Made by a program: the position numbers and the translations under genes. The notes beneath the pieces are model-generated. The model was not told where the DNA came from and did not search any database. It saw only the letters and a program-made list of their open reading frames with translations. From a virus: a stretch of DNA of 64,000 nucleotides. Within the stretch, counting starts at the first letter, position 1. Each line of letters begins with the position of its first letter. The stretch lies in the IMG/VR virus record IMGVR_UViG_3300043584_000003, positions 35,163 through 99,162 of that record. One strand, given 5' to 3'. Below, in pieces: positions 45,670 through 47,915 of this stretch.

Positions 45670-46086
45670 TTATGCGGTATCGGCGTCCTGCCGGATCATC
45701 ACCCAGAACTCGTCAAAGCTCTCCCATCGCTTTCGCATCTGAAGCCAGTCACGCAGCATCTCCTGCTTGAGGATACGGCTCGCGATGTCGTTGCGTACGA
45801 CCTCCTCGCTGGGCTCGTACACGTAGCCGCTCGGTCCGCGAATGGCCTGAAACGCGCGAACGTTATCGATGTTGCCATCACGCTTGATGTAGCTGATCTT
45901 CACCGAGCGAATGAGCTGGTGAGCCTGCTCACGGCGGTACCGTTCGGCTGCCTCGGCGTCGTCCCACGTGAACCGCTGGTGTAACGGATGATCGGTCCCA
46001 CGCGCCTCGTCGAGAACGATCTGAGGTGTTAACTCACCACCGTGTCGTTGCCGGATCTCCATAAGAACGTCTCGTAGCTCTGCCAT
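45670..46086 (-). CDS. Helical accessory protein downstream of the GGY-NN array
   Basis: Likely start ATG 46086 behind GAGGAAAG; ELTPQIVLDEAR...HPLHQRFTWDDAEAAERYRREQAHQLIRSV. Confidence 0.7.
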   Translation of the reverse strand: MAELRDVLMEIRQRHGGELTPQIVLDEARGTDHPLHQRFTWDDAEAAERYRREQAHQLIRSVKISYIKRDGNIDNVRAFQAIRGPSGYVYEPSEEVVRNDIASRILKQEMLRDWLQMRKRWESFDEFWVMIRQDADTA

Positions 46087-46106
46087 CGTTATCTCTCTTT
46101 CCTCGT

Positions 46107-47119
46107 TACCCCTGCCTTGCCTGCCCCGCCTTACCATACCTTGCCATGACGTACCCTGCCTTGACTGCCGAACCACGCCAAAACTCGCCTTGCCATACCG
46201 AACCACACCCCGCCATGACATGCCTGCCTTGCCTTGCCGTGCCAAACCTCACCATGCCGCACCTTGCCAAGCCGCGCCGCGCCTGCCGCACCAAACCACG
46301 ACTTACCACACCCAACCGCACCGAGCCCTGCCGAACCCGACCATGCCATGCCTGCCCTACCGAGCCGAACCAGACCTTGCCTTGCCATGCCTGCCCTACC
46401 GAGCCCAACCAGGCCTTGCCACACCCTGCCTTGCCGAGCCTGCCTCGCCGAGCCTTGCCGAGCCTCGCCCCGCCTGACCCAGCCTGCCCTGCCACGCCAA
46501 ACCTAGCCATGCCGAGCCGCGCCTGCCAGGCCCAACCATACCTCGTCTCGCCTGGACCCGCCATGCCTGCCCTGCCAGGCCCTGCCAGGCCGGGCCATGC
46601 CAAACCGCGCCGGCCTCGCCGTACCCTGCCTAGACATACCACGCCTGGCCTGACCTTACCTCGCCGGCCTCGCCTTGCCTCGCCTAACACCGCCTTGACA
46701 TGCCGTGCCGTGCCGTGCCCTGCCGCGCCTGCCTTACCGTACCTTGCCGAAACCTGCCATGCCTAGCCGAGCCTGCCACGCCACGCCGTACCCTGCCTGG
46801 CCGCGCCATACCTGCCTCGCCACAACCAGCCGCGACCTACCCGGCCCAGCCTAGACTCGCCGCGCCACGCCCAGCCTTACCCGCCATGCTTCGCCAAGTC
46901 AAGCCCGCCTCGCCGTGCCATGCCGCACCATGCCTAAACAGGCCGCGCCTTGCCTCGCCAGCCTCGCCAGCCTCGCCAGCCTCACCCTGCCTGGCCAGGC
47001 CAAGCCATACCTCGCCAGCCTCACCCTGCCTAGCCAGGCCAGACCTAGCCATACCTCGCCTCGCCTGCCTTGCCGCGCCGTACCTTGCCGCGCCGTACCT
47101 TGCCTTACCAAACCACGCC
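46107..47119 (-). repeat. GGY-NN pentamer array 1 (putative non-coding guide array)
   Basis: + strand reads (NN-RCC)n for ~1 kb, broken into ~20 blocks by single 4-nt units (mostly TGCC, i.e. GGCA on -); NN highly variable. Confidence 0.9.
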
Positions 47120-47185
47120 CAGAACCAGAACCAGAACCAGAACCAGAACCAGAACCAGAACCAGAACCAGAACCAGAACCAGAAC
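47120..47185. repeat. (CAGAAC)11 microsatellite at the 5' end of array 1
   Basis: 11 perfect hexamer copies (GGTTCT on the - strand). Confidence 0.9.
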
Positions 47186-47222
47186 CCGGACCCGGCTCCG
47201 TACCTGCCTCGCCTACCTTGAG

Positions 47223-47915
47223 CTACCGGGCGGCGGCACCGGTGTCGTTGACGACCTGCACGTCGCGAGTCATGTCGATGGCATAGGTACCGCACTCGCC
47301 GCGCTTCTCGGGCCGCCAGTCACCCACGCCGATACCGAGCCCGCCCGCGTCGATCAACGAGAGAACCGAGCTGCGCGAGATACACGAACGAACGAAGGTC
47401 ACCTCGAGTGTCGTGGTCCACTCGGGAAACTCGGGCCGGTAGCGCGTCTCCGAGGAGCTTCCGTACCCGCCGAGCCGTACCACGTCCTCGCGCATACGCG
47501 GCTCGCCGATGATCGGAACGAGCGCCTGCGGGTCTTCCTTGCTGATCTCGCCCTTCATGAAGATGAACTGCCGCAGCTCGGTCATCTTCACGTCCTTGCC
47601 GTAGAACCTGGCGGCGCTCACGGTAGCCGCCTTGAACGCGGTGATCGGAAACCCATAGCCGTCACGCAGCCGGTAGAAGGCGGCCTGGTACTCGGCCTCC
47701 GGGTCACGCGGCGTCTTCGGTGTGCTGATCGACTGCTGCCGGTGGAGCATCTGCAGCTTGGCCTTCTCGCTGAACCTGTGCACGATGAGCGGCGCGGTGC
47801 CGACGATCGGCACGAGCAGCGTCTCCGTGTCGATGCGGCTGATCTCCACCTTGGCCGTCGACTCGTCTCGCGCTGCGGCCGGCTCGGCCTTCGCCTTGGT
47901 CGGATTGGTCGTCAT
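47223..47915 (-). CDS. RAMP/Cas7-like RNA-binding protein
   Basis: beta1 LLVPIVGTAPLIVH, GFPITAFKAA (cf. IPGSSxKG), thumb-like REDVVR...TRYRPEF.EW, C-terminal G-rich loop GGLGIGVGDWRPEKRGECG. Confidence 0.7.
   Translation of the reverse strand: MTTNPTKAKAEPAAARDESTAKVEISRIDTETLLVPIVGTAPLIVHRFSEKAKLQMLHRQQSISTPKTPRDPEAEYQAAFYRLRDGYGFPITAFKAATVSAARFYGKDVKMTELRQFIFMKGEISKEDPQALVPIIGEPRMREDVVRLGGYGSSSETRYRPEFPEWTTTLEVTFVRSCISRSSVLSLIDAGGLGIGVGDWRPEKRGECGTYAIDMTRDVQVVNDTGAAAR

Follow-up and report, generated by a model that had tools for sequence, protein, structure and literature searches.

Systems of the Viral Interference Programmable Repeat (VIPR) kind combine a Vipr RAMP protein with vrRNAs that comprise 9-16 YNNGG repeats (bioRxiv 10.64898/2026.04.26.720920). 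The NN dinucleotides pair with double-stranded DNA (dsDNA) and one target base, usually the wobble base of a codon, is skipped per unit; 667 such systems of seven types have been described which include vap accessory genes, are carried mostly by viruses and show no self-targeting (10.64898/2026.04.26.720920). Staggered vrRNA arrays are presented in fig. S18 of the same report. Cryo-electron microscopy (cryo-EM) showed that each protomer accommodates one pentamer with the NN bases displayed (10.64898/2026.04.26.720927). Subsequent studies documented codon-periodic targeting, orphan vrRNAs, guides against the vipr genes of rivals and satellite vrRNAs that divert Vipr towards host decoy sites (10.64898/2026.10.15.759431), and recovered 99 clusters of VIPR-like arrays (10.64898/2026.10.21.760802). 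The locus described here lies in a 64,000-nucleotide stretch of DNA (the window; positions 35,163 to 99,162 of IMG/VR record IMGVR_UViG_3300043584_000003) from an uncultured soil actinophage with a genome of 100,903 bp. It comprises a vipr gene, a vap gene and two arrays of GGYNN pentamers, all on the minus strand, and very probably is a member of the VIPR family of the staggered-array kind.

An initial annotation of the window had pointed to phage systems named VIPR with GGY/NN units in which every third base is skipped. These systems indeed exist (10.64898/2026.04.26.720920; 10.64898/2026.04.26.720927; 10.64898/2026.10.15.759431). The accompanying suggestion that an actinophage version might be uncharacterized probably does not hold for the kind as such: staggered arrays (fig. 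S18), vap and orphan arrays have been published, and the homologous loci of phages Pipp and Brocalys would have been accessible to the authors' PSI-BLAST searches of NCBI NR. The kind itself is not new, given that descriptions of VIPR, of staggered and orphan arrays and of guides against vipr have been published. What is new is the predicted match of one guide, 46352-46288, to the head scaffolding gene of other phages, and the claim is limited to this one well-supported predicted target rather than to a panel.

A Vipr homolog and its pentamer arrays

The 230-amino acid protein encoded by vipr had no match in Pfam and was assigned in PHROGs to phrog_4652, a family of 'unknown function'; the vap family is phrog_15946. 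When the single sequence was compared with all PDB chain sequences, the best match was the SUSP1 Vipr protein (36pp_D; E 9.8e-5). With a profile built from 56 homologs, the same chain was the sole match among PDB chains (E 3.8e-13) with alignment over chain residues 4-188 of 202. The protein possesses the RAMP fold, with an RRM core, thumb and G-loop, and the last of these reads GVGDWRP in both SUSP1 Vipr and the protein examined here. In the cryo-EM structure, residues H17 and D177 of SUSP1 Vipr bind G1, R138 and W178 bind G2, and R179 binds Y3 (bioRxiv 10.64898/2026.04.26.720927). Residues H17, R138, D177, W178 and R179 align with H46, R160, D199, W200 and R201, respectively, in the 230-residue protein. 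R160 and R201 do not vary among the 56 homologs and at least 90% of them have W200, and no confident alignment was obtained for the equivalent of SUSP1 K33. Judged by these alignments, the protein is a homolog of SUSP1 Vipr in which the GGY-binding residues are retained. The designation as RAMP/Cas7-like in the initial annotation was borne out accordingly by homology to a protein of solved structure, and the proposal that each protomer would bind one pentamer and display NN agrees, by analogy, with the cryo-EM report on SUSP1 Vipr (10.64898/2026.04.26.720927). The Vipr family spans 3295 clusters (50% identity) at E<=1e-3.

The succession of a 230-residue open reading frame (ORF) and a GGY-NN lattice of ~1 kb that is cut by 4-nt units, as noted initially, was confirmed by a dynamic-programming parse that split the lattice into blocks and by 1000 mononucleotide shuffles. 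Array 1 includes 150 GGY triplets with a second GGY exactly 5 nt downstream, whereas the shuffled sequences averaged 7.2 such triplets and never exceeded 19. The parse resolved 19 blocks with 7-13 pentamers each, together with some that are short or degenerate. Consecutive blocks are separated by one 4-nt unit, in most cases GGCA and more rarely GGCT, GGCG or GGCC. The block that was quoted in the initial annotation is located at 46224-46170 on the minus strand. The two arrays together consist of 227 units in ~25 guides. Among these units, pentamer position 1 is G in 99.6%, position 2 is G in 92.5% and T in 6.6%, and position 3 is C or T in 99.6%, whereas positions 4 and 5 have entropies of 1.84 and 1.97 bits, respectively; GTY replaces GGY in 15 of the 227 units. 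If the register of the previous block is continued, GGCA becomes GGCAG, and its closing G is G1 of the next guide which corresponds to a 1-nt overlap. As the guides abut with only the 4-nt GGCA between them and Rfam detected no structured element, the layout is staggered and not SUSP1-like. A scan of the 100,903-bp genome revealed no arrays of this grammar other than arrays 1 and 2.

Tandem repeats with periods of 6, 9, 15, 39 and 57 were detected by TRF at the vipr-proximal end (46917-47186), and a 39-nt duplication is present at 46344-46420. These patterns suggest that the arrays may grow through slippage or duplication followed by divergence of the NN positions. The stretches that are dense in duplications are 46917-47119 and 46344-46498, and certain neighboring blocks have ends in common.

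A predicted target in head scaffolding genes

Guides were written as NNxNNx patterns with a 1-nt skip and were scanned for exact matches in public collections. The control was provided by a pair of related loci, here L005, from IMG/VR, and L004. The first guide of L005 (10615-10669) was the one conspicuous case among 119 guides of relatives, and its target is the vipr gene of L004 (10547-10579). The two match at 18/18 bases over nine units and at 20/22 overall, in frame, and the target codons E-K-K-G-D-F-G-T-F are situated just after the G-loop. The vipr gene of L005 itself has two non-synonymous codon differences from the L004 site, and the 9-unit pattern has one match in all of IMG/VR, namely the L004 vipr site. 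The match demonstrates that the scan is able to find gapped targets and that the 1-nt skip rule holds in the clade. On the basis of this correspondence the first guide of L005 is assigned as an anti-VIPR guide.

Guide 46352-46288 has the NN string AT AT CG TC AG TC GC TG GT AA GT TT GC. Its first nine units gave exact matches in 46 IMG/VR contigs. When all 13 units were considered, 25/26 bases matched in 11 of these contigs and at least 21/26 matched in 23; no viral contig matched all 13 units exactly, the failure being at the last base, and no match was found in metagenomes when unit 11 was masked. In 44 of the 46 contigs the site is within a small ORF with a common motif, and a long virion protein holds the other two. 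All seven ORFs that were tested are head scaffolding proteins according to PHROGs, and for five of them DUF4355 was matched in Pfam as well (E<=0.01). With respect to the codons (K-T-F-)T-Q-A-D/E-L-D/E-R-I/M-I/M the guide is antisense, and each skip coincides with a wobble position. Among the 46 sites there are 33 distinct 26-mers from 31 protein clusters (>=70% identity), all four bases occur at the skip positions, and the target contigs have a median GC content of 65%. Among named phages, one instance of the target is gene 10, annotated as 'scaffolding protein', of Mycobacterium phage Collard (MH651171.1; record positions 7538-7575) which matches in frame at 25/26 bases. A GTC unit within the guide still matches the target. 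In comparison, shuffled guides attained a maximum of 19/26 on the same DNA, and skip rules of 0, 2 and 3 attained maxima of 19, 18 and 17 of 26, respectively. Thus, the gapped NN.NN.NN search that the initial annotation had envisaged disclosed a strong natural target for one guide, and the scaffolding gene probably is the true target of guide 46352-46288.

As the guide reads a conserved motif at codon positions 1 and 2 alone, synonymous variation would not impair it, and many rivals would be within its range despite their divergence. That 33 DNA sequences from 31 clusters of scaffolding proteins fit a single guide supports the published claim that wobble skipping defeats synonymous escape. The guide of L005 is sense and guide 46352-46288 is antisense to the respective target mRNAs, and the presence of both orientations fits DNA targeting. 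Neither a DUF4355 gene nor the T-Q-A motif was found in the genome of the carrier phage; as the carrier is devoid of a scaffolding gene of this type, the guide cannot match its own genome. More generally, no guide outperformed shuffled guides on the 100,903-bp genome under skip rules 0-3, in agreement with the initial search by eye which had noted no self-target.

The remaining guides behaved differently from guide 46352-46288, which alone exceeded shuffled guides when the guides of the window were compared with the complete Collard genome, with 47 target loci and with 34 loci of relatives. Guides 46729 (11 units) and 46283 (10 units) gave zero exact gapped matches, as did 12 units of guide 54728 in metagenomes. 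The latter, a 13-unit guide of array 2, had one match (L083) in a 9-unit scan, and its extension agreed at 1/8 bases which is attributable to chance. The first nine units of guide 46881 matched 25 IMG/VR contigs of 34-37% GC (L084-L108) that share one near-identical, non-coding sequence; the extension was at chance level and no ORF was present. This case amounts to a single chance match multiplied by near-identical contigs. In the scan controls, other patterns of 18-26 specified bases produced 0, 0, 0, 0, 0, 1 chance-like, 25 from one family and 1 true match.

Related loci in actinophages

The Vipr protein was detected by tblastn in 34 GenBank phage records, in each of which it is labelled 'hypothetical protein'. 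Identity is 56-59% for Gordonia phages Pipp, UmaThurman, Ecliptus and ODay and 42-44% for 27 Mycobacterium phage records. Further loci comprised 31 from IMG/VR and one from GTDB, a contig of a metagenome-assembled genome of the Kribbellaceae. Same-strand GGYNN arrays with the same punctuation were found at 33 of 34 related loci, and the last unit was GGCAG in 133 of the 160 chains in these loci. Junctions between guides were of -1 nt (n = 64) or +4 nt (n = 21). In the latter, which occur in the arrays of loci L031-L033, GGCAG plus 4 nt (TTCY, TTAY or TTGT) takes the place of the 1-nt overlap. An alternative parse of this junction is GGCA and then a GTT-NN unit, in which case the register shift of -1 (modulo 5) would be conserved. 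The NN strings of the window showed nothing in common with the guides of relatives beyond the shuffled expectation. With GGY and the punctuation fixed and guides unique to each phage, the homologs keep GGY while NN varies, which was the check that the initial annotation had suggested. A vap homolog is located downstream of vipr on the same strand at 32 of 34 related loci. In some of these loci it follows the array, as it does in the window, and in others it lies between vipr and the array.

In Pipp (MN234179.1), gene 43 (positions 4617-4886 of locus L002) is a GenBank coding sequence (CDS) labelled 'hypothetical protein' that overlies a GGYNN array at 4623-4838. The gene order is vipr (gene 42), the array with gene 43, and vap (gene 44). 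Gene 43 probably is a mis-annotated guide array. In Brocalys (NC_031262.1; positions 3696-3904 of locus L003), a staggered array of ~37 units fills a 237-nt gap upstream of the Vipr homolog, gene 45. This array adjoins an antirepressor and immunity region, and gene 46 is a weak vap homolog.

Comparison of positions 44000-50000 of the window with phages by megablast gave zero matches, and the phage therefore is considered new. The uL1 protein of the phage showed identities of <=65% to those of 301 Actinomycetota genomes and no host was called. This sample took in four unpublished genomes (G002, G049, G089 and G121) on which no claim is based.

Organization of the locus and neighboring genes

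The features of the locus are compiled in Table 1. A few GGY units lie between the vipr stop codon and the hexamer microsatellite, which is out of the 5-nt register. A regex search recovered no comparable hexamer runs in 34 related loci, and the tract could be prone to slippage or act as a spacer. The vap product has a winged helix-like N-terminal domain followed by a long C-terminal helix. The sequence GAGGAAAGAGAG precedes the ATG of vap, with a purine-rich ribosome-binding site directly after array 1. The ends of the two arrays (46121-46090 and 54520-54490, minus strand) are alike, with GCAGGGGTA...GAGG running into the ribosome-binding site of the next gene; the initial annotation had pointed out such a stretch for array 2.

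Table 1. Components of the VIPR locus (coordinates refer to the window)
Feature	Coordinates	Strand	Description
vipr	47223..47915	-	230-amino acid stand-alone RAMP (Cas7-like) protein; stop codon TAG
GGTTCT hexamer microsatellite	47119..47186	-	TRF: period 6, 11.3 copies, 100% matches; between vipr stop and first guide
vrRNA array 1	46121..47119	-	~1 kb, ~200 GGYNN pentamers, ~19 guides (7-13 units each) and some that are short or degenerate
Guide with predicted natural target	46288..46352	-	13 units
vap	45670..46086	-	138-amino acid accessory protein
vrRNA array 2 (orphan)	54512..54850	-	~340 nt, ~60 pentamers, ~6 guides; 6.6 kb upstream of vipr and ~7 kb from array 1

Array 2 is flanked by ORFs of 67 and 118 codons, neither of which has a family match. 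The gene just upstream of vipr (47942-48484, minus strand) matched the 'Swiss Army Knife' RNA-repair HAD domain (PF18143, HAD_SAK_2) with an E-value of 3.5e-6 that is slightly over the cut-off. Neither this gene nor the other flanking gene, of 144 codons, is conserved beside vipr in relatives. No Rfam family, CRISPR repeats and hammerhead ribozymes included, was matched within positions 44000-56000. TRF and repeat parsing revealed no CRISPR repeat-spacer array and only repeats of the 5-nt lattice and duplications thereof. The initial statement that the locus has no CRISPR units consequently stands, whereas its statement that cas genes are absent stands for four checked neighbors: Pfam and PHROGs gave no cas family in 47942-48484, 45224-45658, 54127-54483 or 54851-55054, and a whole-genome screen with cas profiles was not performed. 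A promoter and terminator scan gave no usable result.

Interpretation of the locus

By extrapolation from what has been published on the family, a single transcription unit on the minus strand would comprise vipr, array 1 and vap. Vipr protomers would bind one pentamer each, gripping GGY and displaying NN, and the 4-nt units would break the 5-nt register such that each block gives rise to its own filament and a tail-less guide. The resulting ribonucleoprotein would bind the dsDNA of a competing phage, skip one target base per unit and block transcription, and Vap may assist at the DNA. A more comprehensive interpretation of the actinophage clade is put forward tentatively, as a possibility that falls somewhat short of an even prospect: the sole boundary between tail-less guides would be the loss of one base from the lattice (GGCA then G), replication slippage at the vipr-proximal end would supply new units, and selection would retain those guides that are directed at codon positions 1 and 2 of conserved motifs in essential late genes of rivals, exemplified here by T-Q-A-D/E-L-D/E-R-I-I of the DUF4355 scaffolding proteins.

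Several observations weigh against the VIPR interpretation of the locus. Recent tandem duplications crowd the vipr-proximal 250 nt of array 1, and functional guides may not be encoded there. The NN pairs are ~60% A/T compared to ~38% A+T for the genome and are poor in C at N4, with CC, CG and CA together accounting for 11 of 227 units. As this bias is unlike codon positions 1 and 2 of high-GC phages, many guides may be decaying, be aimed elsewhere or be constrained by RNA folding; avoidance of pairing with GG tracts, or a bias in the targets, is a possible origin. A credible target was found for only one of ~25 guides, and the six others that were scanned gave nothing or chance-like matches. 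No other guide matches the full Collard genome, from which it follows that the phage is not focused on Collard. The sequence is present only in DNA runs from soil metagenomes, and transcription, processing at GGCA and ribonucleoprotein formation all are inferred. Moreover, staggered arrays were not among the architectures confirmed by small-RNA sequencing in the published work, which were the ribozyme-interspersed and single-vrRNA types (10.64898/2026.04.26.720920).

One alternative is that the locus is VIPR by descent and that its arrays are mostly slippage filler with few functional guides, the scaffolding match being one survivor or a coincidence. The dense recent repeats at 46917-47186, the 39-nt duplication at 46344-46420, block pairs with common ends, the 15 of 227 units with GTY and the six of seven scanned guides that lack a credible target all would fit such a history. 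However, an in-frame match at 25/26 bases is hard to attain by drift when shuffled controls reach <=19/26, the GTC unit of guide 46352-46288 still matches, and GGY and the punctuation have been held over 1 kb. Missing targets also are expected because the databases cover soil actinophages poorly. This alternative is considered unlikely, although it is the strongest of those weighed here. That the scaffolding match itself is coincidental, with a random 9-unit pattern that happens to equal codon positions 1 and 2 of a widespread motif, is more doubtful still. The 44 scaffolding matches do stem from one conserved motif and so constitute roughly one independent event, and seven guides were scanned. 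Nevertheless, the four units outside the scan match 7/8 bases in 11 contigs (~4e-4 by chance per variant), the register has all skips at wobble bases (expected by chance in 1 of 3 cases), no more than one independent match was obtained with other 18-base patterns in the same collection, and skip rules 0, 2 and 3 gave nothing.

A regulatory role, in which guides act on genes of the carrier or its host as a developmental switch and not in attack on competitors, has a precedent in the published satellite vrRNAs that send Vipr to host decoy sites. It is judged very improbable here, as no guide exceeded shuffled controls on the 100.9-kb genome of the carrier with any skip rule and the sole target found is in structural genes of other phages. 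The proposition that the array is a protein-coding, Gly/Ala-rich repeat, which is how GenBank treats Pipp gene 43 by annotating a CDS on the array, can practically be discounted. ORFs of 150-206 codons are open over the array in several frames and on both strands, but this reflects a strand composition that is poor in stop codons. A 5-nt period rotates the reading frame with each unit and the 4-nt units shift it again; the constraint resides on pentamer positions 1-3 in any codon phase with positions 4 and 5 near maximum entropy, and the arrays of relatives share no common NN content. An array of VIPR guides, one of which is predicted to target scaffolding genes, accommodates these observations best.

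If the more comprehensive interpretation of the actinophage clade is correct, one guide would exclude dozens of divergent phages, cluster K mycobacteriophages included, and the carrier would be spared as it lacks this type of scaffolding gene. The module now can be named in cultured, freely available actinophages, among them Gordonia phages Pipp, UmaThurman, Ecliptus and ODay and Mycobacterium phages Brocalys, Saal, Donkeykong and others. The vipr (phrog_4652) and vap (phrog_15946) genes of named actinophages currently are annotated as 'hypothetical protein', and the Pipp array as a CDS. Furthermore, guide 46352-46288 and Collard gene 10 form a concrete pair for the study of staggered VIPR in a tractable host-phage system, Mycobacterium smegmatis mc2 155.

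Comparison with known systems

The locus is closest to the staggered VIPR architecture (fig. S18 of 10.64898/2026.04.26.720920), with which it shares a lone Vipr RAMP protein, GGY/NN pentamers, guides that overlap by 1 nt, vap, carriage by a phage, and the absence of a CRISPR array and of self-targeting. The main text of that preprint names neither an actinophage nor a target for the staggered architecture. The type II VIPR of Escherichia phage SUSP1 (PDB 36pp) resembles the locus in possessing a homologous protein with the same contact residues for G1, G2 and Y3, a 1-nt skip at wobble bases of codons, and both orphan arrays and guides against vipr, the counterpart of the latter here being the guide of L005 directed at L004. 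Sequence similarity to SUSP1 Vipr is low (phmmer E 1e-4), however, and the SUSP1 locus has 1-4 guides whereas ~25 guides in two arrays are present here. In SUSP1 every vrRNA forms a unit of its own, ~100 nt long, that carries an invariant structured 3′ tail, in contrast to the tail-less guides of this locus that have GGCA(G) as their only punctuation. The targets differ also: SUSP1 guides address a satellite recombinase or a lysis-lysogeny regulator, whereas the target predicted here is a late structural gene for head scaffolding.

More distant are the backbone proteins of class 1 CRISPR-Cas systems (Csm3, Cmr4 and Cas7). Unlike those systems, the locus has no repeat-spacer array and its protein no second RRM, and none of the partners Cas5, Cas6, Cas10 and Cas1/2 was seen in the four checked neighbors. 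The period here is 5 nt with three bases sequestered, compared to 6 nt with one base flipped in class 1 CRISPR-Cas. TIGR-Tas likewise is a non-CRISPR, array-encoded guide system of phages, but is characterized by an 18-nt period and a Tas effector (FpTasA) without Vipr (10.64898/2026.10.21.760802), features that have no equivalent at this locus.

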